Numbered from the stretch's first letter, positions 1-18,830 are shown. The stretch: 24,000 nucleotides of DNA from Rhodospirillaceae bacterium bin65 (GCA_002238725.1 MPMX01000005.1:28150-52149), one strand, 5' to 3'. Notes: a model not told the origin generated them from the sequence alone. Made by a program: numbers and translations.

Positions 1-2732
1 TTCGACTGGCTCTCGTTGTCGAGCCAGTTCGTCGCCTCGTCGAGCAGCAGGATGCGGGGGCTGCGGATCAGCGCCCGGGCGATCATGATGCGCTGGCTCT
101 CGCCGCCTGACATTACGGCCGCGCTGGCGCCCACCGGGGTCAACATGCCCATCGGCATCGCCTTGATTTCGTCGTCGACGCCGGCAATCCCGGCCGCCAG
201 CCACGCTTCCTCGGACGTCACCCCCTCGTGATGGGCAACGATATTGTCCCACAGGTCCTGCGGATGAAGCTGCACCGCCTGGGGAACCACGCCGATCTTG
301 CGGCGTACCTGCTTGACGTTGAGGTGCCGCAAATCGCGCCCGTCGTAAAACACCGCGCCGCCGGACGGCTGATCCAGGCCGAGTGCGAGCCGGAACAGGG
401 TGCTCTTGCCGGCCCCGGATTCGCCGGCAATGGCGATGAATTCGCCGGGTCGGGCATGGATCGTTACGTCGTCCAGAATCAGCGGGCCGTCGGGGTCGTA
501 GCGGAACGAGACATGGTCGAACAGGATGTGGCCGCCAAGATGCTCGACGGATTCGCCTTCGGCGCTGGCTTCCGGGGTTTCGGCGAGGAAGGGCCGAAAC
601 TGCTCGAAGGCCGGCAGGGCGGCGGCGACCGCGCCGAAAGAATCCCCGAGGCGGGCCACGGCCGTCTGGAACACCATGAACACGGTATAGACGATCAGGA
701 AATCGCCGACGCCGATGGCTGCCCGGCCCGGCAACGCGGCTGCAAAGAGCAGCGCTGCCCCGGCGAGAAACGGCAGCGCCGTGCAGAAGGCCTGCAGATG
801 CTCTTCCAGATTGCCCAGTTCAAGTTCTGCCTGCTTCTGCGCACGGTAATCCTGCGCCCAAACGGCAAAGGCCGATCCTTCGGCGCAATCGACGCGCAGC
901 TTGGTAATACCATTGACGATCTGGAAAAGCCGGCCGGCCACCCGGCGGACGGCGCCGATTATCCGGCCACGGGGCGAGACTTGCCGCAGTCCGAGGATCG
1001 CGGTCACGATCAGGAACAGAAGGCTGAAGGCCACGGCCACGCCGCCCAGCACGGCATCGTAGAAAAAGATAACCAGAAAAGCCGGCAGCAGGAAAAGAAC
1101 CGACAGGATGGCATTGGCGACGACGCCCTGCACAGCATTGCGGAGATTCTGGAACGTCATGCCCCGCATCGCCAGATCGCCGGCCGGGTAGCGGTGCAGC
1201 ATGCCCGGCGGCAGCCGGAGCAATCGGTCCCAGAATGCGGCTTCGAGCCGGGATGTCGTGCGCCCTTCCAGACGCATCAGCGCCATTCCCTGCAGGACGT
1301 GCAGCACCACCCCGATCAACGCCAGGGCCGCCAGCCCCGCGGTCGCCGCATAAAGCAGCCCGGTATCGCCGCCCGGAATGATGTCATCCACAACCAGGCC
1401 CAGCACCAGGGCCGGCAGCAGCATGATCAGGCCGCCGGGCAGGCCGGCCAGCACCAGGCGCGCCAGATCGGCTGTCAATCCCTTTCCCGCGATCCTGAAC
1501 AGATCGGCGGGTTCGGCGCTGCCGGGCGGCAGCGGTCGATAGAACATCCAGGCGTCGGAGCGCAGCCTGCCGGCGCGTTCCGCCGTCACACGGGCGCTGC
1601 GCCGGCCGACGGGATCGACTTCCCGGTAGCGTCCCGACAGGCCGGGCACCAGCGCCACCGGGCGGTCGTCCTCCGCTCGAAAGGCCAGCATCGAATTACT
1701 GTCGCCGAACCACCACGCGTCTTCCCGTCTGAGCCGCACCTGCCGGGCGCGCACGCCGGACGCATCGAGAATATCGTCCAGGCCGATGGCGGATTCGGAA
1801 CGGCTCGAAGGCGGCCGGATCTTGAACGCGATTCCTTCGCGCTGTCCGATGATCCGCAGCGCATCCGGCAGCGCCGAATCGCCGGCGTCGGCGCCGCCCT
1901 CTTTGGATATGTCATACAGGTTGAACAGGCGCCGCCGGGCGCCTTCCTCATCGCTGCGGCGGCTTGTTGCCCGCGCCCGCTCCAGATTTGCCTGGTCGAC
2001 GACCGCCAGCTTCCGGTTGAGCCGCTCCAGGGCAAAGGCAGCGGCGTGGAATGACAACAGGGCGGGCAGCAACAGGCCTTCTTCGGCCAGAGTCACCGAA
2101 GCACGGGCGGCAGACGGCGCCGGTTCCAGCATGGCGACCCAGCTTGTCGACGTTAGCGGAATGGAAGTTGCGCCGTCGTCCGGTCCGTACTCCGCCGGGT
2201 CGATCAGGTCGAGGTACAGACTCGCTCCCGCAGTCAGATCGGTAACCCACACCACGCCCCGACGCGCCGAAAGCGTCCGCCGATCCGCCGGCAGAGCCTG
2301 TCCCGGCGCGAGGAGCGCGTCCGGCCGCGGCCGGTTCATGACGTCGCGGACCAGCATGGCCGAAAGGTCCGACAGCCAGGCATCGACCTGCGCCGCCAAC
2401 TCGACCGGGCGGGCTGCGCCGAGATCGGCAACCGGCAATCGCCGGATCGCCGTGCCGGGCAAACCCTTTGCGATCAGGCTGAAGGTCGTTTCCCCGTCGT
2501 GCGGCGCGACGCCCGGCAACAGCCGGCCGGCGTCGGCGCGCAGCAGGTGCTGTGGCGCCGATTGCTGCACGCCGTCTCGCTTCTCGACCAGAAACAGGTC
2601 GACGGCGCCTCGGTCGACGAAACAGAAGAAATCCGGATCGTCCAGATCGACCGGCAGATTGCCGGCGCAGGCGACGGGCGGCCCGGCCCGGGCGGCGAGA
2701 TCGGCGAGCGAACGGCGTTCGGGTGGCGTCAT
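1..2732 (-). CDS. ABC transporter permease/ATP-binding protein, the non-peptidase second subunit of an NHLP-type bacteriocin export system; the 3' end runs off the window
   Basis: Absent from the ORF track because it has no stop inside the window. My translation of the minus strand from ATG 2732-2730 (4 nt after the upstream gene's stop) stays open to nt 1, about 910 codons. It reads MTPPERRSLADLAARAG..., then a long soluble N-terminal region, a hydrophobic ABC membrane domain, Walker A IAIAGESGAGKSTLFRL (nt ~390-445), signature MSGGESQR and Walker B ILLLDEAT (nt ~30-110). There is no C39 Cys/His motif. The + ORF 228..2054 is its antisense shadow. Confidence 0.85.
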   Translation of the reverse strand, partial: MTPPERRSLADLAARAGPPVACAGNLPVDLDDPDFFCFVDRGAVDLFLVEKRDGVQQSAPQHLLRADAGRLLPGVAPHDGETTFSLIAKGLPGTAIRRLPVADLGAARPVELAAQVDAWLSDLSAMLVRDVMNRPRPDALLAPGQALPADRRTLSARRGVVWVTDLTAGASLYLDLIDPAEYGPDDGATSIPLTSTSWVAMLEPAPSAARASVTLAEEGLLLPALLSFHAAAFALERLNRKLAVVDQANLERARATSRRSDEEGARRRLFNLYDISKEGGADAGDSALPDALRIIGQREGIAFKIRPPSSRSESAIGLDDILDASGVRARQVRLRREDAWWFGDSNSMLAFRAEDDRPVALVPGLSGRYREVDPVGRRSARVTAERAGRLRSDAWMFYRPLPPGSAEPADLFRIAGKGLTADLARLVLAGLPGGLIMLLPALVLGLVVDDIIPGGDTGLLYAATAGLAALALIGVVLHVLQGMALMRLEGRTTSRLEAAFWDRLLRLPPGMLHRYPAGDLAMRGMTFQNLRNAVQGVVANAILSVLFLLPAFLVIFFYDAVLGGVAVAFSLLFLIVTAILGLRQVSPRGRIIGAVRRVAGRLFQIVNGITKLRVDCAEGSAFAVWAQDYRAQKQAELELGNLEEHLQAFCTALPFLAGAALLFAAALPGRAAIGVGDFLIVYTVFMVFQTAVARLGDSFGAVAAALPAFEQFRPFLAETPEASAEGESVEHLGGHILFDHVSFRYDPDGPLILDDVTIHARPGEFIAIAGESGAGKSTLFRLALGLDQPSGGAVFYDGRDLRHLNVKQVRRKIGVVPQAVQLHPQDLWDNIVAHHEGVTSEEAWLAAGIAGVDDEIKAMPMGMLTPVGASAAVMSGGESQRIMIARALIRSPRILLLDEATNWLDNESQS

Positions 2733-2736
2733 CGGG

Positions 2737-5073
2737 TCAACCTGCCCTCACCAGTTTGAAATAGGTGCCGTCCTCGTCGGAGATCAATTCCTCATGGGTG
2801 CCGCGCTGCACCTCCACACCCTTGTCGAGCACGATGATCTCATCGCAATCCCGAACCGTGCTCAGCCGGTGCGCAACGATCAGGCAGGTCACCCCCCGGC
2901 GCCGCAGTGCGTCGTCGACCAGTTCCTCGGTGGCGGCATCGAGGGCGCTGGTCGCTTCGTCCAGAACCAGCACGGTCGGGTTGCCGACTAGGGCTCGGGC
3001 AATCTCGAACCGTTGCCGCTGACCGCCGCTGAAATTCGCACCGCCTTCATCCACCGGCGTCGCATATCCGAGCGGCCGGCTGAGGATATCGTCGTGAATG
3101 CATGCGTCCCGCGCCGCCGAGATGATCGCTTCGTCGGGTATCGCCGGATTCCACAGGGTAATGTTCTCGCGCAGGGTCGCGGAGAAGAGCACGATTTCCT
3201 GGTCCACCATCGACACGGAGCGCCGCAGCACCTCCTCCGGAATTTCGTGGCGCGGATGGCCGTCGAACAGGATCTCGCCGGACCAAGGCTGGTAGACCCC
3301 TGAAACCAGGCGCGACAGGGTCGACTTTCCGGAGCCGCTCGGCCCGACCACCGCGACCCGCTGTCCCGGCCCGATCGTCAGGTTGAAATCCTCGATCAGG
3401 GGCTTCCGGCCCCGATTGTAACCGAATGTAACGCCGCGCAATTCCACCTGGCCGGCCAGCTGCAGCCGGCCGTTGAACGTAGGGATGGAATCCACCTCCG
3501 GGTTCCGGCGCGCGAAACCCGGATCTTCCGAAGACCTCGTGATGTCTTCCAGCCCCTGCATGTCGACTTCGAGCGCCTGATACTTGTCGGCGAACTCGAC
3601 GAAACGCCCGACAGGCGCCAGGAACATTGCCGCTACGATGTAGAATCCGACCAGCACGCCGAGCGTGATTTCGCCCGCCATGACCTGGGTCGCCCCGATG
3701 GTCAGGACCGCTACGTTGCTCAAAATCGTGAGCAGGCCGGGCAGCGCCGTGTTGATGTAGCCCAGTTCGGAGTAGCGCTGGTAGGCGTCCAGTTCGCGAG
3801 CCTGGTGGCCGCCCCAGCGCGAGAAGAAGCGATCGTCCGCGGCGGTCATCCGCAACGTGTCGGCGTGCTGCAGCATCAACATGCCGACTCCGTGCAGAAG
3901 CCCCTGTTCGCGCCCCAGGGCATGGCCCTTTTCGATCCTGAGGCGCGCGATCGTGCGCACCAGTACGCCGTTGATCACCGCCAGAGCCAATACGATCAGG
4001 CCCAACACCGGATCGTAAACCAGCATGACGGCCAGAAAGACGGCGCTCATCACAAGCTCGACCAGGAGGCCGAGGAAATGGTCCGACAGGCTCCTGGCAA
4101 TTCTGTCGATAGCGAGAATGCGGGTTGTCAGTTCGCCGACAAGCCGATGGCTGAAAAATTCGACCGGCAGCCGCAGCAATTGCGAGACGCACCGATTGCC
4201 GGCGGCGACGGAAATCCTGACAGCCAGACGCTTCAGACAACGCTGTTTGAGCCAGGTGAGGCCGTAGACCAGCACGGCCGCAGCAGCCAGCACACCGGCC
4301 ACAAGCGCTCCCCAGGGTTCTTTGTCTTCGAGCACCCGGTCGACAAAAACGCTCAACGACGCCGGAAGCACCAGCGCGAGCAGGGCCAGCATCGCGCCGC
4401 AGGCAACCGTGTAGGCCAGCACGCCCCGGGCTCCGGCGAGCCAGAGCGGGAGCTGCCGGAGAATGCTGGGCCGGGCGCCGCCGCTCTGGAAGTCCGGCCC
4501 GGGATTGAATTGCAGCGCAATCGACGAAAAGCCTTCTGCAAACTCTTCGACCGTCAGTTTGCGACGCCCGGTGGCAGGATCGTTGAGATAGAAATGCCCG
4601 CGGTCGAAGCCTTCGAGGATGAGAAAGTGGTTGAATTCCCAGAACAGAACCAGCGGCAGCGGCAGCTTCCTGATCTGGTTGAGATCGACGCTCCGGCCCG
4701 TGCATTCGAGGCCGTAATGCCGGGCCGCCCGCAGAATGCCCGCGGCGGTCGAGCCGTCGCGGCTGACCTCGCATTTCTCGCGCAGCTCGGTGAGCGGCAC
4801 CCAGCGCCCGAAATGGGCGAGCACGCTGCCGAGGCAGGCGGCGCCGCACTCCGTTACATGCATCTGCAGCAGGAGCGGCGTGGTCACCCGCCGTTCGGCG
4901 GGGTCCCCGGACGGCCTCGGTCCCGCTTTTGCCGACGCGTGCCGGGGGGGCGGCGGGCATCTGGGCCGTCCCGGGGCGGGGGAGGGGGGGGGGGCGTCCC
5001 CCCGCCGTTCGGCGGGTTCCCCGGCAGGCTTCGTTCCCGATTTGGCAGACGCGTCCGGGGCGCGCGACGACAT
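2737..5073 (-). CDS. C39 peptidase-domain ABC transporter (bacteriocin leader-cleaving exporter, NHLP-system type)
   Basis: C39 motifs QMHVTECGAACLG (catalytic Cys), NHFLILEG (His) and LNDPATG (Asp). These are followed by a multi-TM ABC membrane domain, Walker A GPSGSGKSTL, signature FSGGQRQR, Walker B VLVLDEATS and H-loop IVAHRLS. ATG 5073 directly abuts the hlyD-like stop (TGAATG). An alternative GTG at 4887 would remove a 62-aa repeat- and proline-rich N-terminal extension, so the start is uncertain. Confidence 0.9.
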   Translation of the reverse strand: MSSRAPDASAKSGTKPAGEPAERRGDAPPPSPAPGRPRCPPPPRHASAKAGPRPSGDPAERRVTTPLLLQMHVTECGAACLGSVLAHFGRWVPLTELREKCEVSRDGSTAAGILRAARHYGLECTGRSVDLNQIRKLPLPLVLFWEFNHFLILEGFDRGHFYLNDPATGRRKLTVEEFAEGFSSIALQFNPGPDFQSGGARPSILRQLPLWLAGARGVLAYTVACGAMLALLALVLPASLSVFVDRVLEDKEPWGALVAGVLAAAAVLVYGLTWLKQRCLKRLAVRISVAAGNRCVSQLLRLPVEFFSHRLVGELTTRILAIDRIARSLSDHFLGLLVELVMSAVFLAVMLVYDPVLGLIVLALAVINGVLVRTIARLRIEKGHALGREQGLLHGVGMLMLQHADTLRMTAADDRFFSRWGGHQARELDAYQRYSELGYINTALPGLLTILSNVAVLTIGATQVMAGEITLGVLVGFYIVAAMFLAPVGRFVEFADKYQALEVDMQGLEDITRSSEDPGFARRNPEVDSIPTFNGRLQLAGQVELRGVTFGYNRGRKPLIEDFNLTIGPGQRVAVVGPSGSGKSTLSRLVSGVYQPWSGEILFDGHPRHEIPEEVLRRSVSMVDQEIVLFSATLRENITLWNPAIPDEAIISAARDACIHDDILSRPLGYATPVDEGGANFSGGQRQRFEIARALVGNPTVLVLDEATSALDAATEELVDDALRRRGVTCLIVAHRLSTVRDCDEIIVLDKGVEVQRGTHEELISDEDGTYFKLVRAG
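4887..5060. repeat. Imperfect ~60-bp direct repeat (4887-4947 and 5001-5060) flanking a G-run-rich spacer (G7 at 4944-4950, G11 at 4984-4994, C6 at 4998-5003)
   Basis: Unit A is CCCGCCGTTCGGCGGGGTCCCCGGACGGCCTCGGTCCCGCTTTTGCCGACGCGTGCCGGGG. Unit B is CCCGCCGTTCGGCGGGTTCCCCGGCAGGCTTCGTTCCCGATTTGGCAGACGCGTCCGGGG. By hand alignment most positions are identical. On the minus strand they encode the duplicated peptide (D/H)ASAK(S/A)G..P.G(E/D)PAERR around a PPPSPAPGRPRCPPPP linker. Confidence 0.8.
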
Positions 5074-5964
5074 TCAGGACCGTCCGGGGTCGAGGAGCGA
5101 GATTGGCGCGCGTCTGCCGAGTTCAACCCGTATCCGGCAGATTGTGCCGTCCGGCACGGTGAGGTCCGACGCCCCGTCGAGGCGGATGTCGATCCGGCGC
5201 CGGGACGGCGGAACGGCGGGCTTCAGCCCTGCCAGCCAGCCCGGCAGCGGACTGGCGACCGCCCCGGCGACCGTGCCGTTCAGTCGGTGTGTCGCACCGT
5301 CGGGCAACGCAAATTCGACGGTAGCCGCCATGCCGGGCCGGATGCGCTGCGCCGTGGGCCGGTCGACCCGCAGCACCGCCTGAAGCGGCCGGTTCCCGGC
5401 TCGGCGAATTTGTGCGACGGCCGTGCCGGCCGGCAGAAAATCTCCGGCGGTCCTGGAAAGGACCATGACTTCGCCCGCGGTCCGGCTAACGATCGTCTGC
5501 CGCGCCGAGCGCCGGGCCTCCATCCGCAGCAACGCAACCCGGGTCGAGGCCAGCAGCGACCGCAGCGCGCTGCCGGTGCCGCCGGATCGCGCGATTTCCG
5601 CGCGCAACACGTCCACCCGCTCCCGAAGTGCGGTCGTTTCGCGTTCCAGATCGGGCACGGTCTGGCGCGCAACCGGCTGGCCTGCCCGGACGCGGTCGCC
5701 CGGCCGGACCAGATACTCGATCAGTTGACCGGGTTCAGCCGAAACCGCGGCATGGCGCTCTCCCGGCGCGATCAGCACGCCGTCGACCGTCACGCTCCTG
5801 ACGACGCTGCCGAACAGCAGCCAGGCCACGAACGCCGCAACGACCAACCCGATGGCGGCGAGCGCCAGACGTTCGTGCGGCGCGGTTATTCTGAGAAGTC
5901 GGTCGAGCTGCTCGCGCTCGTTCTTGGCGTCGGCGGATAAATTGTGAAACGGGTTGTTGAACAA
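5074..5964 (-). CDS. HlyD-family membrane-fusion/secretion adaptor of the bacteriocin export system
   Basis: N-terminal ...EREQLDRLLRITAPHERLALAAIGLVVAAFVAWLLFG, a single TM anchor after an LD-rich segment. Then a lipoyl-like segment (GQLIEYLVRPGDRVRAGQPVAR), a coiled-coil stretch (LERETTALRERVDVLRAEIAR) and beta-barrel-like repeats. It is first in the operon with the two ABC genes. At 296 aa it is shorter than most HlyD proteins, and there is no obvious SD before the ATG. Confidence 0.8.
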   Translation of the reverse strand: MFNNPFHNLSADAKNEREQLDRLLRITAPHERLALAAIGLVVAAFVAWLLFGSVVRSVTVDGVLIAPGERHAAVSAEPGQLIEYLVRPGDRVRAGQPVARQTVPDLERETTALRERVDVLRAEIARSGGTGSALRSLLASTRVALLRMEARRSARQTIVSRTAGEVMVLSRTAGDFLPAGTAVAQIRRAGNRPLQAVLRVDRPTAQRIRPGMAATVEFALPDGATHRLNGTVAGAVASPLPGWLAGLKPAVPPSRRRIDIRLDGASDLTVPDGTICRIRVELGRRAPISLLDPGRS

Positions 5965-6422: not shown

Positions 6423-6451
6423 TTAGAAATTATTCGACACGAGGCTAGAAT
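6423..6451 (+). promoter_or_regulatory. Candidate sigma70-type promoter of the precursor gene (TTAGAA-N17-TAGAAT)
   Basis: It lies in the only strongly AT-rich patch of the window (about 6300-6500). The -10-like TAGAAT is at 6446-6451 and the -35-like TTAGAA at 6423-6428, with a 17-nt spacer. This would give a ~70-nt leader containing the hairpin GTCCAG(6459-6464)/CTGGAC(6476-6481) and the strong SD GAGGGAG before ATG 6529. It is a motif match by eye only. Confidence 0.3.
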
Positions 6452-6528
6452 TCATCAAGTCCAGTCCCGGTCCTGCTGGACAGGATATTGAATTTCGCAA
6501 ACAGGACTGACAACGAGGGAGACACATC

Positions 6529-6783: not shown

Positions 6784-6799
6784 ACGACGCCAGCCGCTT

Positions 6800-6824
6800 C
6801 CGGCCCGGCTGCCGGCCGGGCCGG
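6800..6824 (+). terminator. Perfect 10-bp GC hairpin just after the precursor stop (stabiliser/attenuator candidate)
   Basis: CCGGCCCGGC (6800-6809), loop TGCCG, GCCGGGCCGG (6815-6824). No clear U-tract follows (GGCTATTCTG), so it is more likely an mRNA-stabilising or pausing structure than a full intrinsic terminator. Confidence 0.35.
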
Positions 6825-6848
6825 GGCTATTCTGCAGTCTGGATTATT

Positions 6849-6892
6849 CGGGCGCGGCTATTGTACTAGCCTCTATGCGCCCGATTTTTTTT
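6849..6892 (+). terminator. Rho-independent terminator/attenuator between the precursor and the RND gene
   Basis: Two-tier stem: CGGGCGC(6849-6855) GGCTA(6856-6860), loop TTGTAC, TAGCC(6867-6871), bulge TCTAT, GCGCCCG(6877-6883). This is followed by A and a T8 run (6885-6892), the longest T run I saw in the window. Confidence 0.6.
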
Positions 6893-10665: not shown

Positions 10666-10819
10666 CCACTTTCCACGCTCGTTGTCGATGTCTTCGGGGC
10701 CCGGCGTTTCGGAGGCCCCGATACCTATCGCAGCAAAGCCTTTCCGCAGGCAACTCCCTGCACCGCCCGGAAGTCTGCGTCCTTGTAAAGCGCTTTGGGT
10801 CTACCTACGCTGCCGCGCG

Positions 10820-11689
10820 ATGAATCGAATTCAGCAACCGCCGGATACCGGGACCGAGATGGAAACCACTGTTTCCGAGCACTACGCCGACCTGACCGAG
10901 CGCATGGAAATGTTCGGCGGCGACCTGCTGGCCTGTCATTTCGGCCTTTGGGGCCCGGACACGACGACGGACCGGGAAGGCCTGCTGCGCGCCAACCGGA
11001 CGCTCGTGCAGGGGTGCGACCTCGGACCGGGGCGGCACGTGCTGGATGCCGGCTGCGGCGTCGGCGGCACTGCGATTACGCTGGCCGAGACCTGCGGCGT
11101 ACGCGTCACCGGCCTGACGATCTGCGAACCTCATATCGCCGTGGCGACGCAGCACGCGGAAGAGCGCGGAGTAGGCCACCTGGTCGACTTCCGTTACGGC
11201 GATTTCATGGATCTGCCGTTTCCCGATGCCAGTTTCGACGCTGTCCTGAATCACGAATCCTTCTGCTATGCGGAGGACAAGCTCGCCTATCTCCGGGGCG
11301 TGTACCGGGTGCTCAAGCCCGGCGGGCGCTGGCAGGCTCTCGAAGGGCTGCTGAGCGGTGCGCCCATGTCCGAAGAACAGGAAGCAAATCATGCCACCGC
11401 GCAGCGCGGCTGGCGCATGCCGCCGCTCGAGCGGTGGCGCGACGTGATTGCATTGCTCGACGAAGCCGGATTCGTCGACATTCGGGAGCGGGATCTTTCG
11501 TCGGAAGCGGCGCCGGCGACGAAACGGCTTCGCGACGGGTGGCTGTTGCTGACTTTCCTGAACCCCCGGTCCGGCGGGCTGAACAAGGCGTCCCAGGAAT
11601 TTATGGAAGCGACTGTCGGCTACGATCAGGGTCTGCGCGAAGGCGTGTTCACCTATCATTTCCTGTCCGGGGCCAAGCCGGATCGGTGA
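10820..11689 (+). CDS. Class I SAM-dependent methyltransferase (paralog 1)
   Basis: SAM motif I VLDAGCGVGGTAITLA, post-I acidic GLTICE, motif II/III FDAVLNHESFCY and VLKPGGRW. The N-terminal EHYADL...HFGLWGP block is as in the sarcosine/tocopherol/GPP-C-methyltransferase-type family. The track ORF (10268..) extends upstream into sequence antisense to the oxidase. I place the start at ATG 10820 (MNRIQQ...); ATG 10859 (METTVSEHY) is an alternative. Confidence 0.8.
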   Translation: MNRIQQPPDTGTEMETTVSEHYADLTERMEMFGGDLLACHFGLWGPDTTTDREGLLRANRTLVQGCDLGPGRHVLDAGCGVGGTAITLAETCGVRVTGLTICEPHIAVATQHAEERGVGHLVDFRYGDFMDLPFPDASFDAVLNHESFCYAEDKLAYLRGVYRVLKPGGRWQALEGLLSGAPMSEEQEANHATAQRGWRMPPLERWRDVIALLDEAGFVDIRERDLSSEAAPATKRLRDGWLLLTFLNPRSGGLNKASQEFMEATVGYDQGLREGVFTYHFLSGAKPDR

Positions 11690-11747: not shown

Positions 11748-12647
11748 CTATGCGGGTTTCTGTGCGCAATACCGCTTGAGCTCGAAGCTCCCGTTTTTCC
11801 AGGCTTCGTACAGCGTTCCGAACTGATCGATCAGCCCGCGGATCCCCGGCGTTTCGACTCCGGCAAACTGTAGCGTGGCAAGGAAATTGTAGCTGTTTCC
11901 GACAAGCCGCAGGTTATCCGAATCCTTGCCGTCGAATCCCTCGAACTCGAGAATTTCCAAACCCGCTTCGTGCAGTTTCTCCGTGTAGGTGGACTGGGTC
12001 TCCAGACCGTCCACGGCAAATGGCTTGCACAGCGGCACGATGTGCTTCTCGTAGACATCGGCCGCCAGGCCGTCGCGCGCCATCCAGTCCATTGCCGCGA
12101 TCTTTCCCGAGGGCTTCAGTATCCGGCCCACTTCGAGAAGAAATTGCCTCCGGTCGCTGTAGTGGCAGGCGCTCTCTATGTTGACGACAGTATCGATCGA
12201 ATCGTCGGCGAAGGGCAGACTCTGCGAGCAATCCGCATATTCGAAGGAAATCCGGTTATCCAGATCCGCATCTGCCGCTTTTCCGGCGGCAATTTCCAGC
12301 TGCATCCTGTTGATGTTGACGCCGGTGACGGTGCATCCCCTGGACCGGGCCAATAGAATGGCGGTTCCGCCGACGCCGCATCCCGCATCCACCACATGGT
12401 GGCGTTCCTCGATTCCGGCCGGCGCAACAATGGCCTCGACCATGCGCTCCACGGCCCGGGCGAGGCCCGGTGAATCGACGAGAGATTCGCCGGGTTCGGG
12501 ACACTCCCCGGGCTCGAACAGTCCGAAATGGATATGGTCGCGGTTCCACCCGTTGAGGTAGATGCCGGGCGTGTTTTCGTCGTAGTAGCGTTCGGCCGCA
12601 CTTTTCTCTTCTGACGCGGATGTCTCCGGACGTTCGTTCACTGTCAT
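11748..12647 (-). CDS. Class I SAM-dependent methyltransferase (paralog 2)
   Basis: 299 aa. N-terminal ERYYDENTPGIYLNGWNRDHIHFGLF, SAM motif VVDAGCGVGGTAILLA, GVNINR, IDTVVNIESACHY and ILKPSGKIAAMDW. It aligns by eye with the 10820-11689 product along the whole Rossmann core. It is last in the minus-strand biosynthetic gene string. Confidence 0.85.
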   Translation of the reverse strand: MTVNERPETSASEEKSAAERYYDENTPGIYLNGWNRDHIHFGLFEPGECPEPGESLVDSPGLARAVERMVEAIVAPAGIEERHHVVDAGCGVGGTAILLARSRGCTVTGVNINRMQLEIAAGKAADADLDNRISFEYADCSQSLPFADDSIDTVVNIESACHYSDRRQFLLEVGRILKPSGKIAAMDWMARDGLAADVYEKHIVPLCKPFAVDGLETQSTYTEKLHEAGLEILEFEGFDGKDSDNLRLVGNSYNFLATLQFAGVETPGIRGLIDQFGTLYEAWKNGSFELKRYCAQKPA

Positions 12648-12748: not shown

Positions 12749-13867
12749 TTATGAAGTCGGCGCGGCGATCAGCACCATGTAAACGTAGCCCTTGACCTGC
12801 CCGATGCCGTCGCCGTCCAACACGATCTTGAAGTGGTGAATGCCGCGCAGCAGCACAAACTGGCCGGACCTCGAAAACAGCGTCGTCGGCCCCGCCGTCC
12901 ATCCTGACAGCGCGGACAATTTCTGCGGCACGCCAAGACCTTCCGTGCGCAGGCCGTCGACGAAGGTATTCCAAAGGCGGGGATCGTCCAGCCAATAGCG
13001 CGGATCCTTAGACACCCTTTCCTTGGCAATGAAACTCAGTCCGAGCGTTGGGCCCAGACCGCCGGACAAGACGTCGAAATGCGCCCCCAGGGCGACGAAC
13101 CCGCCATGTTTTTCGAAGCGCGAGACAGCGGCCGCGGCGGCCGGGCGCTGTCCCGGCCAGCCCGCGCGTTCGAGGAATGCCGCCAGATCCTGCGAGTTCC
13201 GAAACCCCGTCACTGCAAGCCGGAGCGCTCGTTCCCGCGAAGGGAAGGCGCCAAAGGATTCGACTCGCGTGTCCGGCCTTTGCGCCAGGTAAATCCGCTC
13301 TGCATGCTGCCGCTCGGCGGCATCGGGGCTCCAACCAACGGCGGATACCAGCGCGTCGAGCACCGTACCGACATCGCCGAGGCATCGGCCGTCGCCCACC
13401 ATCGGCCGTTCTGCCGGCCGGAGAAAGATGCCGGGATCCGCCGGCGCGTCGTCGGGTCTCGAAGCGACGTCGTATTCGAGCATCATCTTCCGTCCGACGA
13501 CCTGGCAAAGCGGCGAATCGTCGGGCTCGGTTTGCTCCAGCAGTTGCGCGATGGCCGAAGCTGACGGAACCGGTTTGTCCAGCCGCGCCTGTTTTTCGAA
13601 ATACGCCGCCGGTCCGGTGCCGCCGACAACCGAAACTCCGAGGTCGGCGCCCGGCCGGGTCTCGTGCAGCGGCAGTTCGAAGCCGAACGGGAAGGCGGCC
13701 ACGGCCGCCGGCAGGTCCCGGGCGCGCTCCAGGACACTTTCCCACTCACGGTCACCGATCAGGACGGGCGATATCTGGCCCCTCAACCGTTCCAGCACTT
13801 CGGCCATGGAGCCGGCTTCGCCGGCGAGGCGCTCCTGGGTCACGGCCAGGCCTTCCTCAAAATTCAT
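12749..13867 (-). CDS. Hypothetical protein, 372 aa, with no family motif I recognise; translationally coupled to the cyclodehydratase
   Basis: Excellent SD GAGGAG 5 nt before ATG 13867, sitting inside the last codons of the upstream gene (stop at 13877). The composition is protein-like rather than the R/G/P-rich shadow type. There are five pairs of beta-strand-like segments separated by helix-like segments (see finding). No cofactor or catalytic motif was identified. Confidence 0.7.
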   Translation of the reverse strand: MNFEEGLAVTQERLAGEAGSMAEVLERLRGQISPVLIGDREWESVLERARDLPAAVAAFPFGFELPLHETRPGADLGVSVVGGTGPAAYFEKQARLDKPVPSASAIAQLLEQTEPDDSPLCQVVGRKMMLEYDVASRPDDAPADPGIFLRPAERPMVGDGRCLGDVGTVLDALVSAVGWSPDAAERQHAERIYLAQRPDTRVESFGAFPSRERALRLAVTGFRNSQDLAAFLERAGWPGQRPAAAAAVSRFEKHGGFVALGAHFDVLSGGLGPTLGLSFIAKERVSKDPRYWLDDPRLWNTFVDGLRTEGLGVPQKLSALSGWTAGPTTLFSRSGQFVLLRGIHHFKIVLDGDGIGQVKGYVYMVLIAAPTS

Positions 13868-13876
13868 ATCCGCTCC

Positions 13877-16267
13877 TCACGCGATAACCGGCACAGGATT
13901 GAGGTCGGCTTCCGGCAGCGGCGACTCGCGCCAGCCCATTTCGACCGGAACGTCGTACAGGCGCCCGGGCGCGAAACGCTCCCAGAAATGGCGCAGGCCG
14001 GGCACGATGACCCGCGCCACCGGCATGCCGATATCCGGCCGCGTCTGGTCGAGCACCAGAAATTCCATGTCCCTGGCCTCGACCAGCGCCCGGCACCGCT
14101 CGACCTCTTCGCGCGCGTCGGCTGTATCCGGGACAGGATAGTCCGCATTGCCGCGCGTGGGCGCCCCCGCCGCCGGCGCCAGCCAGGGATGGTCCGCCAG
14201 CGTCGCCGTCTTCCACCACCACAGCGCCAGCGGATCGTCGATCGCCGGGCCGCCGCCGCCCGGCCGCGGCAGCCAGGTCAGGCACTGGTTCAGCTCGCAC
14301 ACCGCGCGCAGGGCCGCGATGCGCGGGTCGGTATGCGCCCCGGCGCCGTAGATGATGTCCTCGGTTTCGCCGCCGATCTTGCGCGAGACGGCGACGAAGG
14401 CGGGAATGCCGAGGTCGGCGGTGACGTCGAGCACCCACATGTCGCGCTCATGCCGGCGGTAATAGTCCGGCGCCGAGGCCAAGTAATCGTCGCCGAAACT
14501 TTCCAGATCCACGCCCGGCACGCGCAACCGGTTGTACCACCAGATCGCGAAGGCGTCGCGTTCGACCAGTTCGAAGAAGCCCTGGAGGATCGCCTCTTCA
14601 AGGGTATTGCCGGCGGCGCAGCCGTTCGAATCCGCGATGAAATCGGCGCTGCCCCGTTGCTCGGCCGGCGTGCTGTAGAGCATCGATGTCGGCAGATGGC
14701 GGTGGCGATCCTGCGTCAGCGACCAGACCGGCGACCAGCTTATTTCGGCGTCCGGATCGAGCCGCTGCGGCACGATATTGTACGGATGGCCCCGGGCGTT
14801 GATTTCGTCCGCATTTTCCAGCTGGCGTTCGCTGAACAGCTGGACGTCGTTCGGGTGGATCGCCGCTGCATTGCCGGCTGCGCCCAAATCCACATACCGC
14901 CCGAGCCGGCGGATCTCGTCGCCGTGGAAGGCGCCGGAGTAGCGCTCGATCGCTTCGCACAAGGCGCTGGCCTCGGACTGCGCCCGCGTGCTGCCCTTGC
15001 CGGCGCTCTTGCTGCGCAGGCTACGCCTCAGCGAGCTCAATTTCCGGCTTCGCAGTCCGTAGTTGGTCCCCGCCCAGTAAACGTGGAGCCAGGAATCGGC
15101 CTCTTCCGTGGTGCGCGCCACCCAGGTCACGACGCCGCTGACCGGGCTGATCAGATTGCGGTATCGGGCCAGGGTCGCTTCGGGGGAGACTGCGCGCACG
15201 CCGCCGCTGTTGCTGATGCCGGTCGGGCTCGGCTGCAGGCGCACCGGAACCGGCGGCCGGTCGGCGCGGTACAGGCCCTCGTCGCCGCACGCGAAACATT
15301 GCGGCCGGCGCATGACCGGATGCCGCTCGCCGGCGAGACGGCCGACATCGAGCGAGATGGCCTGCGCATGGAGCGGTGCCGCTTCGTCCAGAACCAGCCA
15401 TTTGGCGATCTCGGCCGCGATCAGGCCGTAGACCGCGTCCAGCACGGCGGGCTCTGCGGCGCCGGGCCGGAAGGCGGCCTCGTCGCCCGCGATGTTGCGC
15501 AGGAAGTTGTGGACCTCCCGGTGGCTGCGCATCCGGTAGGCGAGGCAGGCCCAGCACGGCCCCCGTTCCGCCGGCCGGAACACCGGGCCGAACAGCGGTT
15601 GCAGGCCCTTCGGCCGAACGAGCACCCACGGTGCGCCGGTTTCGATGCGCTTCCGGTTGATGGCGTCGCAGCGTTCTTCGAGATAATCGGCGCAGACGAC
15701 CGCTGTGAGGGCGATATCCTCCCGGCCCGTCGCGACGCCCATCGCCTCGAGCCGCCGGGAAAACTGTCCGCCGTCGCCGTCGACCGCCACGCGCGCCGCC
15801 GCCAGGCGCTGTTCCGCCCAGCGCGGCGCGGCGCCGAGGGCAGACCAGTAGGCCGCCCGGCCCCGGTCCATCGAATGTTCGGCGGAAACGGCATAGCCCC
15901 TGGACGCTAGGCCGGCGAGCGCGGTGCGGATATCGGCAGCGGCATGGGCGCCGGCGAGTGCCGCAACGATGTCGCCCTGCGGCCGGCCGTCGAGCAGTGG
16001 CAGCAGATCGCGGTAGATCGGCCGGCGCAGCAGCGTATTGAAGGTTTCGGAAACCAGCAGGGTCTGCTGCCCGTCGACCGGATGAAAGTCGAGATGCGGC
16101 GTGAGCGTCGGCCGTTCGACAAGCCCCCGGTCCTCGGCCGAGACCCTTGTCAGGATTCCCGGCGGCGACGGTCTGGCCGGCGAAGCGGGCGCGTCTGTCT
16201 TGCTGTCCGGGGCCGGGGCGGCGGAACGGCGCGATGGACTGCCGTCGGGTCGATGCCTGTCAGTCAT
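13877..16267 (-). CDS. Fused E1-like (SagC/ThiF-like docking) plus YcaO (SagD-type) azoline-forming cyclodehydratase
   Basis: 796 aa. The N-terminal half carries the cyclodehydratase-domain pattern (PHLDFHPVDGQQTLLVSETFNTLLRRPIYRDLLPLLDG ... PWVLVRPKG...GPVF...GPCWACLAYRMR ... CFACG). The C-terminal half is YcaO-like (GKGSTRAQSEASALCEAIERYSG, DSNGCAAGNTLEEAILQGFFELVERDAF, GIPAFVAVS, GAGAHTDPRIAALRAVCELNQ, proline-rich C-terminal tail ...IVPGLRHFWERFAPGRLYDVPV). The first ~50 aa are a P/S/A-rich low-complexity extension. Confidence 0.9.
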   Translation of the reverse strand: MTDRHRPDGSPSRRSAAPAPDSKTDAPASPARPSPPGILTRVSAEDRGLVERPTLTPHLDFHPVDGQQTLLVSETFNTLLRRPIYRDLLPLLDGRPQGDIVAALAGAHAAADIRTALAGLASRGYAVSAEHSMDRGRAAYWSALGAAPRWAEQRLAAARVAVDGDGGQFSRRLEAMGVATGREDIALTAVVCADYLEERCDAINRKRIETGAPWVLVRPKGLQPLFGPVFRPAERGPCWACLAYRMRSHREVHNFLRNIAGDEAAFRPGAAEPAVLDAVYGLIAAEIAKWLVLDEAAPLHAQAISLDVGRLAGERHPVMRRPQCFACGDEGLYRADRPPVPVRLQPSPTGISNSGGVRAVSPEATLARYRNLISPVSGVVTWVARTTEEADSWLHVYWAGTNYGLRSRKLSSLRRSLRSKSAGKGSTRAQSEASALCEAIERYSGAFHGDEIRRLGRYVDLGAAGNAAAIHPNDVQLFSERQLENADEINARGHPYNIVPQRLDPDAEISWSPVWSLTQDRHRHLPTSMLYSTPAEQRGSADFIADSNGCAAGNTLEEAILQGFFELVERDAFAIWWYNRLRVPGVDLESFGDDYLASAPDYYRRHERDMWVLDVTADLGIPAFVAVSRKIGGETEDIIYGAGAHTDPRIAALRAVCELNQCLTWLPRPGGGGPAIDDPLALWWWKTATLADHPWLAPAAGAPTRGNADYPVPDTADAREEVERCRALVEARDMEFLVLDQTRPDIGMPVARVIVPGLRHFWERFAPGRLYDVPVEMGWRESPLPEADLNPVPVIA

Positions 16268-16355
16268 TCAACCGGTCCGTGGCGTATCGATGGCGCCGGG
16301 GCATCGCGCGCTTCCGCGGCGCCTGCAATCCACCCTTCTTGCGGCAGGGCCGGGC

Positions 16356-18830
16356 TCAGGACGGGCCGGCCGCGGCGTCCGCCGTCGCGTCCAGCGCGCC
16401 GATCACGGCGGCGGCGCGCGCCGCCGTTTCGCCGGCCGCGGCATCCAGCGCGTCGAAATCGTCCTGGCCGCAGGACTGCGCGAGCACGTCCCTGGCACTC
16501 GATCCCAGCGCCTCGGCCTGGACGCCATCGCCTGCGACGAGCCGCTGGGCGCCGTGCAGGTTCCGCCACAGCGCCGCGGCGTCCGCCAGGTCCGCCGCCG
16601 GACCGTCAGCGATCTTTCCCTGTGCGGCTGCGGCGCGAAAGACCGAAGCCGCGGCGGGTGCGGGATCGTCCGGGGCGTCCCCGGCAAGGACCAGTTGCAG
16701 GAGCCGTGCAGCGCGTTCGACATCAAAAAGGCCGCCGCGCATGTTTTCATACGCAGCAAGCCCGGTTCCGGCATCGCCGTTGCCGGCGGTGTGCAGTTCG
16801 GCGATCAACCTGCCGCGCGCGGCGCCCGCGGCCAGGGCTTCGCGCCGCGCCTGGTCGAACCGCTCTCCGATTCCGGCCGCGCCGTGTTCGAAAATGCAGC
16901 GCGCGCGGGTCAGTTCCAGAAGTTCGCTTGCCGGCGCGGCGGTCCGGCAGTGCTCCGCGAAACCGGTCAGGGACCGCACAGGGCGCCCTTTCCGGCTGCC
17001 GGGGATCGGCGCGAAAATCAGGCTGTCGCGCGACAGTTCCCTGAGCGCATCGTGGAAACGCCAGCACAGGCCATCGTAGCTGTCGTCGGAGCCGCCTTCG
17101 TAGACGAAGAGAATTTCGAGCGCAGCGCCGGGCGCCGTTTCCCGGCTCGCCGGATCGCCCAGGATTGCAGCGGCGACACCGCCCCCGCTCCCCGGCACGA
17201 GCCGGCCGGCGAATTGCTCGGCGACCGACGACAGGACGGCGGAAATCGAGGCTTCGGCCAGATTGGACAGGGCCGTCCCCGCCTCGATCGGCGTCAGGTT
17301 GCCCCGCAATGTGTGCATGCCGATCTGGAACGCCTTGTCGTTCGACCAGTTGCGCAGCGTCTCCACCGTGTCCCGAACGTCCTGGACCGGCGTTTCGGCG
17401 ATGCGTTCCTTCATTTCGGCGACGCCGAATTCGTGCGTCCAGTAGAGGCGTGTCAGGCCCTGGCGGGCGATCGCCTCGGCCTCCGGGTCCGGGCCGAAGC
17501 CCTTGGGCAGGTCGAGATCGGTGAATTCCCTGTCCTGCAGGCTGTCGAGCAGTTCCGGATGCCGCTCGATCCATCCTGCGAGATGCGGCGCGGCGGCGAA
17601 TATCTCGACGATGGCGTCGAACGCTTCCGGGCGCGCGGTCGAAACCGGGCTGTCGTAGGCGCTCCAGTCCTCGATCTCGGGATAGAACTGCGCGCGCCAC
17701 CGGTCGACCAGCGGGTCCATGGTCTCGAACCATCGCTTGGGACGCACTGCCAGGTTGAACATCCTGGCGTAGCTGCCCGGCAGTTGCGGCGACTCGTCGG
17801 CGCCGCGATTCTGCAGCAGGGGATAGGGCCGGCTCGCCACGGCGTGGTGATCCGGGTGCCGCTGCATGTTGTAGAACATCCAGTTGCTGAACTTGTAGTT
17901 GGCGTTCCACGAGTGCCGGGGCCGGACCTTCTCGAACCGGCCGCTGCGCAGGCGGACCCGGCGCAATCCGTAGTGCTGCATGTAGTTGCTGATCTTCATC
18001 GAGAAGACGGTGCCGAGGCACAGGACGGCATAAGCCAGAACCGCCCACAGGCCGCCCATCCAATAGATAAGCGCATACCAGAAACCGGTTTCGATCCCGT
18101 ACCGCCAGAACGGGTTGCAGTAGTGCCAGATCGGCAGGGGGGGGGGGGCCCGCCCCCCCCCCCCCGCCCGCCCCCCCACCCCCCCCCGCGCGCCCCGCCA
18201 GGAGCCGGTAAGATTGCTCGCGACTTCCCGGGGAAAGTACTGCCAGAAGCTCTGGCCCCTGGGCGCGGAGCCGACGTCCAGCGGCGTGCCGACCAGGGCG
18301 TGGTGGATGTAGACATGCTCGGTGGCGTATTGCGGGTAGGAGGCGGACGCGAGCAGGAACTCGCCGAGCCGCCGCTCCCAGGTTGCGCGCCGGTGGATCA
18401 GTTCGTGGCCGACGATGAAGACCGCCTGGGCTTCGCCCGTGAGCACAACCGCCAGCAATATGCATTCCCAGACCGAGAACTGGCCGGCGGCAAGGATCTG
18501 CCAAAGCCCGAACACGAGAGTCGGCGGCCAGAGAAATGCCCAGAACCAGACCGGCAGGTTGTGCCAGAACAGCTTTCGTTCGGGAGTATTTGCGGGGTCC
18601 ATGTTCCGCTCGTCGTCGCCGAAGGCGATGTCCAGCGGGCCCGCGAGCATGAAGAAGGCAAACGGCGCCGCAATCCACCAGCCGCCGTGGATTAGGGCGA
18701 GGATAATCAGCGGAAAAATTGCCAGCGGCAGGAAATGGGGCAGGGCGTTGCGGAACGAAGGTTCGATTGCCTTCGCTGCGCGGGTGTTTCCGGAGTTCAG
18801 ACCGCCCGGTTCGACGATATTTTCCGCCAT
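16356..18830 (-). CDS. Fusion protein: N-terminal AlkB-type membrane di-iron hydroxylase/fatty-acid-desaturase-fold domain, C-terminal GlnE-like (glutamine synthetase adenylyltransferase half) domain with a degenerate active site
   Basis: 824 aa; SD AGAGG lies 6 nt before ATG 18830. AlkB hallmarks appear in order: HELIHR, EHVYIHH, NYMQHYGL, HSWN, LQRH-like NMQRHPDHH, and the C-terminal MDPLV. From about aa 400 it aligns by eye to one GlnE half: AAAPHLAGWIERHPELLDSLQD; VETLRNWSNDKAFQIGMHTLRGNLTPIEAGTALSNLAEASISAVL; then AILGDPASRETAPGAALEILFVYE where GlnE has GKLGG.ELGY.SDLDLIFL; then LELTRARCIF and GGLFDVERAARLLQLV. The frame stays open across the G12/C13 tract at 18137-18187. Confidence 0.8.
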   Translation of the reverse strand: MAENIVEPGGLNSGNTRAAKAIEPSFRNALPHFLPLAIFPLIILALIHGGWWIAAPFAFFMLAGPLDIAFGDDERNMDPANTPERKLFWHNLPVWFWAFLWPPTLVFGLWQILAAGQFSVWECILLAVVLTGEAQAVFIVGHELIHRRATWERRLGEFLLASASYPQYATEHVYIHHALVGTPLDVGSAPRGQSFWQYFPREVASNLTGSWRGARGGVGGRAGGGGRAPPPLPIWHYCNPFWRYGIETGFWYALIYWMGGLWAVLAYAVLCLGTVFSMKISNYMQHYGLRRVRLRSGRFEKVRPRHSWNANYKFSNWMFYNMQRHPDHHAVASRPYPLLQNRGADESPQLPGSYARMFNLAVRPKRWFETMDPLVDRWRAQFYPEIEDWSAYDSPVSTARPEAFDAIVEIFAAAPHLAGWIERHPELLDSLQDREFTDLDLPKGFGPDPEAEAIARQGLTRLYWTHEFGVAEMKERIAETPVQDVRDTVETLRNWSNDKAFQIGMHTLRGNLTPIEAGTALSNLAEASISAVLSSVAEQFAGRLVPGSGGGVAAAILGDPASRETAPGAALEILFVYEGGSDDSYDGLCWRFHDALRELSRDSLIFAPIPGSRKGRPVRSLTGFAEHCRTAAPASELLELTRARCIFEHGAAGIGERFDQARREALAAGAARGRLIAELHTAGNGDAGTGLAAYENMRGGLFDVERAARLLQLVLAGDAPDDPAPAAASVFRAAAAQGKIADGPAADLADAAALWRNLHGAQRLVAGDGVQAEALGSSARDVLAQSCGQDDFDALDAAAGETAARAAAVIGALDATADAAAGPS
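18137..18187. repeat. Extreme G/C homopolymer block inside the alkB-like CDS (G12, then C13, C7, C9)
   Basis: G12 at 18137-18148, CCCG, C13 at 18153-18165, GCCCG, C7 at 18171-18177, A, C9 at 18179-18187. G12 and C13 are self-complementary and could form a GC-only hairpin. The block encodes RGARGGVGGRAGGGGRAPPPLP in the annotated frame. Confidence 0.9.

Follow-up and report, generated by a model that had tools for sequence, protein, structure and literature searches.

The sponge-derived RiPP (ribosomally made and post-translationally modified peptide) proteusin (srp) pathway has been studied for a precursor, SrpE, with an LCCCW core, in which SrpC forms three thiazolines and SrpI brominates the Trp residue; its final product is cryptic, and the core boundary used here for LCCCW precursors is the one given in the same papers (PMC10286304, PMC10858898). 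A 2025 survey described sponge proteusin clusters as containing two transporters, a YcaO protein, a precursor and several genes whose function is unknown, and reported that an "LCCC" motif with diverse ends is common to them (PMC11832590). Here we analyze a stretch of 24,000 nucleotides (hereafter, the window) from Rhodospirillaceae bacterium bin65 (GCA_002238725.1, MPMX01000005.1:28150-52149), in which eleven genes located within positions 1-18830 define a cluster built around a precursor of the NHLP (proteusin) type with predicted core LCCCGI. An identical locus was found in the Rhodospirillaceae metagenome-assembled genome (MAG) GCA_026710645.1 and in several metagenome assemblies.

An LCCCG-x variant of the srp clusters

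The comparison with the published srp clusters (Nguyen et al., JACS 2021) rests on their descriptions in PMC10286304, PMC10858898 and bioRxiv 10.1101/2023.06.09.544420. The window cluster can be assigned to the srp family because the ends of the leaders are near-identical, both cores start with LCCC, and three further components are shared: the YcaO cyclodehydratase, a fusion of an AlkB-type oxygenase with a GlnE-like region (AlkB-GlnE) and a 372-aa protein of no recognized family (hereafter, the orphan). As judged from these sequence features, the cluster is a sister lineage of the published srp clusters, with an LCCCG-x core in place of LCCCW. An earlier note, made from the sequence of this DNA, had put forward an enzyme set matching no described class; this was mistaken, the set being a sister variant of published srp clusters. 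The note had also considered that the family might already be characterized, and this applies in part: srp is published, but only its precursor, YcaO and brominase have been characterized and its product is cryptic. The LCCCG-x lineage, with its methyltransferases and flavin oxidase, is hence an srp variant that had not been highlighted before, and its final product is likewise cryptic. A full-text search of the literature for "LCCCG" returned nothing relevant. With its gene set recurring in dozens of genomes, the cluster lies far outside what chance would produce.

The genes of the cluster are as follows:

<1..2732, minus strand: ABC2, second ABC subunit of NHLP export, permease/ATPase without peptidase domain; 3' end beyond the left edge of the window
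2737..5073, minus strand: C39-ABC, C39-peptidase ABC transporter
5074..5964, minus strand: HlyD-like protein, short periplasmic adaptor of the NHLP export module, 296 aa
6529..6783, plus strand: NHLP (proteusin) precursor, 84 aa
6973..9348, plus strand: MMPL/HAE3-type RND transporter with sterol-sensing-like domain
9328..10665, minus strand: CKX-like (cytokinin dehydrogenase-like) FAD oxidase of the VAO/PCMH family, with RGGGHS motif
10859..11689 (alternative start 10820), plus strand: MT2, class I S-adenosylmethionine (SAM) methyltransferase
11748..12647, minus strand: MT1, class I SAM methyltransferase, paralog of MT2
12749..13867, minus strand: orphan, 372 aa, predicted prenyltransferase (PT) barrel (ABBA) fold, putative SrpD equivalent
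13877..16267, minus strand: fused E1-like/RRE and YcaO cyclodehydratase, SrpC equivalent
16356..18830, minus strand: AlkB-GlnE fusion, membrane di-iron oxygenase with GlnE-like C-terminal region, putative SrpB equivalent

The window is GC-rich (60-72%) and many long antisense open reading frames (ORFs) arise in it; real genes were told from antisense artefacts by their translations and their GC content by codon position. All eleven genes listed in the earlier note were recovered with the same coordinates and their domain calls borne out, the sole addition being the placement of MT2 on the plus strand, by which the MT1 and MT2 genes converge. The three junctions it quoted are also exact: a TGA-ATG junction at 5076-5071, where the HlyD-like gene's stop codon meets the ATG that starts the following gene, a gap of 4 nt at 2733-2736, and a 9-nt gap at 13868-13876 between the YcaO and orphan genes, inside which a GGAG is present. 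No unassigned coding space longer than 300 nt was found in 1-18830, save for a 565-nt region upstream of the precursor gene.

Comparative analysis of related loci

A scan of one genome per species with the orphan identified 363 relatives. The best 79 loci all lie in MAGs, several of which carry sponge-derived names or bin labels (e.g. Candidatus Poriferihabitaceae, Spongia_Bin9), and span at least ten taxonomic groups, including Alpha- and Gammaproteobacteria, Nitrospirales, Binatia, Thermodesulfobacteriota, Opitutales, Bryobacterales/Terriglobia, Nitrospinota and Rhodothermales. Two lineages were surveyed by searching with the window proteins in tblastn, clustering the ORFs of the loci all against all, and scanning representatives of the resulting clusters with Pfam. 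The 80 loci compared comprise 23 in lineage A (LCCCG-x), which include the window's own contig (L001), and 57 in lineage B (LCCCW). Precursor extraction yielded 49 loci encoding ...EEQLEAISAG-LCCCW. The two lineages compare as follows:

Orphan identity to the window protein: lineage A, mostly 58-100% (52% in L037, placed there by its LCCCGL core); lineage B, 48-53%
Cores: lineage A, LCCCG[IVLF], WCCCG[NTQ] and MCCCGI; lineage B, LCCCW (rarely LSCCW, LCCSW or LCCCGW)
MT1 and MT2: lineage A, 22/23 and 21/23; lineage B, 0/57 and 0/57
CKX-like oxidase: lineage A, 13/23; lineage B, 0/57
RND pump: lineage A, 20/23; lineage B, 17/57
YcaO: lineage A, 17/23; lineage B, 43/57
AlkB-GlnE: lineage A, 17/23; lineage B, 40/57
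NHLP-toroid protein (~450 aa): lineage A, 1/23; lineage B, 49/57
Trp_halogenase: lineage A, 3/23; lineage B, 21/57

The analysis outlines a conserved unit, as the earlier note had proposed: AlkB-GlnE, YcaO and the orphan travel together in both lineages (17 of the 23 LCCCG-x loci and 40-43 of the 57 LCCCW loci), accompanied by precursor and exporters in hosts from many phyla, and nearly every LCCCG-x locus has the methyltransferase pair. Conservation is thus not confined to precursor, YcaO and exporters, the outcome that the note had named as speaking against it; the orphan, AlkB-GlnE and the methyltransferases are co-conserved as well. With respect to most LCCCW loci, the window proteins present 56-63% identity for AlkB-GlnE, 50-53% for the orphan and 67-70% for YcaO, and the order of the genes is the same. 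In the LCCCW lineage this order runs toroid protein, AlkB-GlnE, YcaO, orphan, precursor ... halogenase, matching srpA-E ... srpI with C as YcaO, E as the precursor and I as the halogenase. From this correspondence, we infer that SrpB equates to AlkB-GlnE and SrpD to the orphan.

A hallmark of srp, the C-terminal Trp of the core, is absent from the window core, which ends in GI, and HMM scans identified no Trp_halogenase (SrpI-type brominase) among the window genes. In the LCCCG-x lineage, the methyltransferases and the CKX-like oxidase replace the halogenase and the NHLP-toroid protein of the LCCCW lineage. Two of the three lineage A halogenase matches fall in adjoining LCCCW clusters (L022, L026) and the third lies ~4 kb upstream of AlkB-GlnE in L010; the halogenase representative matches PF04820 (E 2e-44). 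Lineage B loci often also encode LolA-like and DUF1302 proteins, which are outer-membrane partners of the RND pump. The toroid protein (~440-500 aa), which is not found in the window, combines an N-terminal NHLP-leader-like domain with an alpha/alpha toroid resembling squalene-hopene cyclases and prenyltransferases (NHase_alpha, E 1e-5; SQHop_cyclase_C, E 4e-6). It is encoded upstream of AlkB-GlnE at L046:3797-5167 and in 48 other LCCCW loci, and also at L025:11127-12449. An enzyme bearing a mimic of a leader peptide is unusual.

Some loci carry more than one precursor or cluster. In L022 and L026 (~700-21000), a WCCCG-x cluster adjoins an LCCCW cluster with halogenase and LolA-like genes on one contig; in each of L023, L051 and L069, the main precursor is joined by another whose core is MCCCGI.

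Precursor, cyclodehydratase and export module

The leader of the window precursor ends in MDEEQLEAISAG (…EEQLEAISAG), the same end seen in the LCCCW (SrpE) precursors of related loci, and is followed by the predicted core LCCCGI, which has no aromatic residue. The precursor scores 64.1 bits against TIGR03793 (cutoff 50.9), as anticipated in the earlier note. A promoter-like site, identified as a consensus match only, lies at 6424..6451 (plus strand) in the AT-richer 565-nt region before the precursor gene, and a putative ribosome-binding site (GAGGGAG) at ~6517-6523. After the stop codon, positions 6800..6892 (plus strand) can form two strong GC-rich hairpins (minimum free energy -57.4 kcal/mol, z = -2.9). 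With the U8 tail that follows the second of these, the structure resembles an intrinsic terminator or attenuator placed between the precursor gene and the RND gene. In high-microbial-abundance sponges, few genes are transcribed as highly as the srp precursor genes (bioRxiv 10.1101/2023.06.09.544420). The promoter-like site and U8 hairpin flanking the window precursor gene (84 codons, 252 bp) fit with the disproportionate transcription reported for a precursor gene of 252 bp.

The fused cyclodehydratase matches TIGR03604 (270.9 bits), TIGR03882 (141.1 bits) and YcaO (E 6e-95), in agreement with its earlier assignment. None of the eleven genes matched a nitroreductase or SagB model (TIGR03605), which bears out the predicted lack of a SagB-type enzyme. 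The cluster encodes no azoline dehydrogenase, and its rings would hence probably be left as thiazolines, like those of srp.

In the NHLP export module, C39-ABC exceeds the cutoff of TIGR03796 (871.5 bits versus 853.3) and contains a Peptidase_C39 domain (E 1e-31). For the two other components, the expected models are the best hits but score below cutoff: ABC2, cut by the window edge, matches positions 2-624 of the 686 in TIGR03797 (E 1.5e-177, 592 bits, cutoff 709), and the HlyD-like adaptor, a short protein, matches TIGR03794 (E 9e-27, 94 bits, cutoff 156). ABC2 also matches ABC_membrane and ABC_tran, its full product in L001 being 972 aa long, and the adaptor also matches HlyD_3. C39-ABC is predicted to cleave the leader after ...ISAG and to export the peptide. 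The RND pump matches MMPL (E 1e-30), TIGR00921 (HAE3; E 5e-50) and HpnN-like (E 3e-35) models.

The orphan presents a predicted prenyltransferase-barrel fold

The orphan matched no Pfam or NCBIfam model, at least 727 close homologs were found with no Pfam domain in any of them, and 30 distant members had no Pfam match even at E <= 10. Membership in PTase_Orf2, Trp_DMAT or cyanobactin prenyltransferases was not detected by sequence. The family comprises at least 1096 clusters or representatives at 50% identity. An AlphaFold2 model built on 22 homologs (pLDDT 92, pTM 0.90) presents ~10-11 strands, mostly paired, alternating with helix pairs. A Foldseek search of this model against PDB returned 61 hits at E <= 0.001, and the 50 listed, with E-values from 6e-7 to 5e-4, are all alpha-beta-beta-alpha (ABBA) or PT-barrel aromatic prenyltransferases, including EpzP, NphB, AmbP1/3, FamD1, FunA, DMATS1, TleC, CymD, FtmPT1 and AtaPT. 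The guess of a prenyltransferase barrel, made in the earlier note from the periodicity of the sequence, is thereby supported at the fold level, and the orphan is predicted to adopt this fold. Several charged and aromatic residues (E, E-Y-D, R, R, K, H-x-K and K-x-Y), situated in or beside the predicted strands, are invariant even at ~30% identity; conserved positions include R150, R211, R213, K282/R284, H345, K347, K359 and Y361.

To analyze more distant contexts, seven longer ones (L086, L091 and L093-L097) with members ~30-35% identical to the orphan were examined. A metagenome scan with a narrow orphan alignment yielded five short loci. NHLP precursors were present in all seven longer contexts and YcaO in none of them. 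The short fragments L087, L089 and L090 also encode NHLP precursor arrays. Because distant homologs keep NHLP precursors in the absence of YcaO, the orphan would be a tailoring enzyme in its own right rather than a YcaO accessory. The model and this gene association point to an independent tailoring enzyme of NHLP peptides, most likely a peptide prenyltransferase. The cores found beside distant orphan homologs nearly all bear Trp or Tyr and are usually Cys-free:

L091 (scaffold labelled NGUY21-1, metagenome assembly): HlyD, C39-ABC, ABC2, orphan-like protein, methyltransferase and ten precursors; cores SHEFFAW, GHHPFW, HHTGLWG and ...PPPLW
L094, L096 and L097: several orphan paralogs, a JmjC protein and proteins that lack annotation (in L094, one of toroid-like sequence); precursor arrays whose cores mostly end in ...DW
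L095: orphan-like protein and methyltransferase; Tyr-containing cores AEIYTDI and PDVGVDNPY
L093: orphan-like protein, then directly a CKX-like oxidase; core WSPSSPSLGP

The usual substrates of the orphan family hence carry Trp or Tyr, the classical acceptors of ABBA prenyltransferases. Trp as a universal acceptor was considered and set aside, given that the L095 cores contain only Tyr and the window core neither residue. In L093, the orphan-like protein is 30% identical to the window orphan, and the oxidase encoded directly downstream, which has a precomputed Pfam Cytokin-bind match, is 33% identical to that of the window. A diverged orphan paired with a CKX-like oxidase in an NHLP cluster devoid of YcaO fits the link between both enzymes suggested in the earlier note. 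The recurrent partners of the orphan (CKX-type oxidase, class I methyltransferases, terpene-cyclase-like toroid, AlkB-type oxygenase and lipid-type RND pump) would suit isoprenoid chemistry.

The arrays of L091 (11159-16539), L094, L096 and L097 contain 5-10 precursors each, with short hypervariable cores mostly ending in or near Trp, and are accompanied by one to several orphan paralogs, JmjC/cupin proteins and methyltransferases, with no YcaO; they look like an undescribed proteusin family. In addition, in a partial record (P0351, MGI9311175.1, 449 aa), the C-terminal part of a toroid-like domain shares one polypeptide with a domain of the orphan family (residues 90-446). Toroid and orphan may thus be connected in Rosetta-stone fashion, although the record is partial and Pfam support for its toroid part is weak (E 0.076).

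Oxidase, methyltransferases and AlkB-GlnE

The oxidase contains an FAD_binding_4 domain (E 1e-24) with the RGGGHS histidine motif, and scores 20.7 bits for Cytokin-bind, under the cutoff of 23. Its 14 best PDB sequence matches are all cytokinin dehydrogenases, plant enzymes (best 6yaq, E 4e-39), with an alignment that spans the FAD domain only (residues 22-238). MT1 and MT2 are 36% identical and both match Methyltransf_11 (E 7e-19 and 4e-23, respectively). The nearest PDB entries are AtM, RebM, MitM and TleD for MT2, and RebM, MitM and TleD for MT1, with the prenyl C-methyltransferases BezA and GPPMT scoring lower; the solved relatives of these class I methyltransferases thus include TleD, BezA and the GPP/FPP C-methyltransferases.

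AlkB-GlnE matches FA_desaturase (E 4e-27), GlnE (E 5e-8) and, with partial low-scoring hits, the glnE NCBIfam models (E 1e-22). The nearest solved structure to its AlkB part (residues ~40-380) is AlkB 8F6T (E 1e-41 over residues 51-378), and the four AlkB His boxes are present (HELIHR142, EHVYIHH171, NYMQHYG282 and QRHPDHH323). A Gly/Arg/Pro-rich low-complexity insert, GGVGGRAGGGGRAPPPLP (window 17020-17080, residues ~215-235), lies between the second and third boxes. The GlnE-like domain is degenerate, as the earlier note had it: the nucleotidyltransferase motif (G-x-S ... D-x-D) is not intact, the segment reading ...GAALEILFVY, and the catalytic Asp motif is lost. At least 932 homologs of the fusion were found; among the 120 listed, nearly all are ~800 aa long and most have both domains. 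The segment L095:4428-7134 holds a genuine glnE in two pieces, of 640 and 277 aa, which has glnA genes as neighbors and adjoins the distant orphan/NHLP/methyltransferase/ABC cluster. This adjacency might hint at the origin of the GlnE half fused to the AlkB-type enzyme in srp, or might be a coincidence.

A proposed pathway and its alternatives

On balance, we favor by a modest degree the interpretation that the window encodes an srp-type cluster of the LCCCG-x lineage producing an alkylated, tailored tri-thiazoline peptide. The 84-aa precursor would be transcribed from its own promoter, with the terminator-like hairpin behind it. The E1-like/YcaO protein would bind the leader and use ATP to convert the three consecutive Cys residues into thiazolines, a step with experimental evidence for the LCCCW ortholog SrpC, and the rings would probably remain thiazolines. 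The predicted PT-barrel protein would then alkylate the peptide, most likely with an isoprenoid diphosphate; since LCCCGI lacks aromatic residues, candidate acceptors are the N-terminal amine, the C-terminal carboxylate and the S or N atoms of the Cys-derived rings. The AlkB-type di-iron enzyme could oxidize an aliphatic group, be it the lipid tail or the Leu or Ile side chain, and the two SAM methyltransferases and, in about half of the loci, the CKX-like flavin amine oxidase would add lineage-specific tailoring, standing where the LCCCW lineage has the Trp-6 brominase and the NHLP-toroid protein. C39-ABC would cut after ...ISAG and export the product with ABC2 and the HlyD-like adaptor, and the HAE3/MMPL RND pump may handle the hydrophobic product or protect the producer. 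Within this scheme, leader-guided formation of three thiazolines, the absence of dehydrogenation, C39 cleavage after ...ISAG and ABC export are well supported. Fold, family and gene association suggest the remaining steps, namely alkylation, aliphatic oxidation, methylation, C-N oxidation and RND handling of a hydrophobic product.

A wider form of this proposal, which we put forward as tentative, is that the orphan founds a large family of leader-dependent peptide prenyl (lipid) transferases serving NHLP precursors independently of YcaO, and that srp products are lipidated poly-thiazoline mini-peptides with a processed tail, delivered by RND systems. The isoprenoid tail would be oxidized by the AlkB-type enzyme and cyclized by the NHLP-toroid protein in the LCCCW lineage, and methylated and oxidized by the methyltransferase pair and the CKX-like oxidase in the lineage of the window; the HAE3 RND system would place the lipopeptide in or beyond the outer membrane.

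Several observations weigh against the proposed pathway. Neither Pfam scans nor a profile search against PDB sequences provided a sequence bridge from the orphan family to prenyltransferase families, and the TM-scores of the orphan model to solved prenyltransferases are just 0.35-0.57. The LCCCGI core lacks the aromatic acceptor found in nearly every distant-lineage core. The closest solved relatives of the methyltransferases are small-molecule O-/N-methyltransferases as much as prenyl C-methyltransferases. HMM scans detected no rubredoxin or reductase partner for the AlkB-type enzyme among the window genes, the domain fused to it being GlnE-like, and the window encodes no isoprenoid-diphosphate synthase. 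Moreover, in the WCCCG[NTQ] loci L014, L018 and L021, where the orphan spans 10001-11119 each time, the orphan is retained along with both methyltransferases (MT1 and MT2), the precursor, the ABC genes and the RND pump, but neither YcaO nor AlkB-GlnE occurs within 10 kb. Either the Cys residues in these loci stay uncyclized and the module is uncoupled from cyclodehydration, or a second cluster acts in trans, which is possible because the genome of at least one of them (OZ219785.1) contains a complete LCCCW cluster at another site (L018 and L075). As to novelty, the LCCCG-x variant or the assignment of SrpD as a prenyltransferase may already be in print in part.

The orphan could have the shape of a PT barrel without being a prenyltransferase, acting as a leader- or peptide-binding partner that presents the core to YcaO, or performing other chemistry, for instance metal-dependent through the invariant His, Asp and Glu residues. 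This possibility, which we regard as rather unlikely but serious, draws on the absence of sequence similarity to prenyltransferase families and of an aromatic acceptor in the window core, on the 9-nt gap to the YcaO gene, which likely entails translational coupling, and on the poor activity of SrpC alone in E. coli, where partially modified products were obtained (PMC10286304). A role as mere YcaO accessory is made less likely by the seven distant contexts in which the orphan homologs stand beside NHLP precursors with no YcaO nearby. The conserved basic and Tyr residues on the strands, moreover, resemble diphosphate-binding patterns, and the PT barrel is, to our knowledge, known only from prenyltransferases. 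Alternatively, the product could be a plain linear azol(in)e peptide without lipid, in which the CKX-like enzyme replaces SagB and oxidizes thiazolines to thiazoles, the methyltransferases cap the N- and C-termini, and AlkB-GlnE and the RND pump serve immunity or membrane adaptation. Azole peptides with terminal methylation include plantazolicin and the aeruginosamides, MT2 is weakly similar to CypM and LahSB, which methylate peptide termini, dehydrogenation of C-N and C-C bonds is carried out by oxidases of the VAO family, and the window lacks a SagB-type gene. The oxidase is, however, missing from 10 of the 23 LCCCG-x loci and from all 57 LCCCW loci, and recurs after an orphan homolog beside the Cys-free WSPSSPSLGP precursor, where there is nothing to aromatize, and AlkB-GlnE is linked to YcaO as tightly as the precursor is. 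This patchy distribution, and a characterized srp pathway that has no dehydrogenase and stops at thiazolines, make it doubtful that the CKX-like oxidase stands in for SagB, as the earlier note had suggested, and the plain azol(in)e peptide is in our view improbable. The least probable option by far is the categorically new RiPP class advanced in that note. [quoted passage not shown]

Comparison with known systems

The window cluster resembles srp in its NHLP precursor with ...EEQLEAISAG leader end and LCCC core start, in the fused YcaO with AlkB-GlnE and 372-aa neighbors, in the NHLP ABC export genes and the HAE3 RND pump, and in its sponge-symbiont MAG hosts spread over many phyla. It differs in a core that ends in G-[IVLF...] instead of W, in lacking the Trp halogenase and the NHLP-toroid protein, in the addition of two methyltransferases and the CKX-like oxidase, and in an orphan that shares just ~50% identity with its LCCCW-lineage counterpart. 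The linear cyanobactins with protected termini, such as the aeruginosamides (AgeMTPT) and muscorides (MusF1/MusF2), come nearest in chemotype to the proposed product; they are short azol(in)e peptides with prenyl and methyl groups on their termini. Unlike the window cluster, these systems use cyanobactin leaders, PatA/PatG proteases and leader-independent prenyltransferases, and have no AlkB, CKX-like or RND genes.

Prenyltransferases acting on leader-bearing precursors provide further points of comparison. MppC, an ABBA prenyltransferase that depends on the leader, comes from a Nif11-leader lanthipeptide cluster in which an SrpI-like brominase is encoded as well (PMC12715784). As a soluble alpha-beta-beta-alpha enzyme in a RiPP cluster with a long structured leader, it sets a precedent for leader-dependent lipidation, and its cluster one for a prenyltransferase and a brominase acting on one peptide; MppC is, however, a recognizable cyanobactin-type prenyltransferase that geranylates the Trp indole, whereas the orphan shows no such similarity and Trp is missing from the window substrate. 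In the NHLP precursor PalX, the C-terminal Trp is prenylated by PalQ (PMC10853753). The short PalX core terminates in Trp, like those of srp and of most precursors associated with distant orphans, and has a dedicated prenyltransferase, but PalQ adopts an all-alpha isoprenoid-synthase (ComQ-like) fold and not a PT barrel. With the NHLP/TOMM systems of Haft, Basu and Mitchell (2010; PMC2887384) and with the mpr cluster (MprC/MprD), the window cluster has in common its NHLP leader, its E1-like/YcaO cyclodehydratase and an export module of three genes; those systems include a SagB/McbC-type FMN dehydrogenase, and the window cluster has none.

After five years, srp is understood only at the level of YcaO and the brominase. 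An always-present "hypothetical" protein with a predicted prenyltransferase barrel provides a testable hypothesis, lipidation, for the missing srp chemistry. The LCCCG-x lineage constitutes a natural experiment, in which the core machinery is shared, the tailoring set is another and the Trp is absent, and its contrast with LCCCW helps separate the roles of shared enzymes from lineage-specific ones. The surprise is lessened by the family being already published; the variant tailoring set, the fold of the orphan and the breadth of its YcaO-independent family make the question of the srp product testable.

Flanking regions

Three antisense ORFs were rejected as genes. The translation of 10805..11659 (minus strand) is Arg-rich and its GC content by codon position is 0.77/0.47/0.70, versus ~0.65/0.45/0.80 in real genes; those at 19404..20828 and 20713..21708 (minus strand) likewise have Arg-rich translations and the wrong codon-position GC profile. 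The right flank (19536-23523) is unremarkable and encodes a Peripla_BP_6 binding protein, an sCache_3_2 sensor fragment, an L-lactate-type MFS transporter and a bacterioferritin. These genes lie outside the cluster, as they are not found near it in more distant loci such as L007. Between them and AlkB-GlnE, a 123-aa ORF (18950-19321, plus strand) matches SulP/BicA transporters at residues ~40-100 only (E 2e-11), and is probably a gene remnant that marks the right-hand edge of the cluster.

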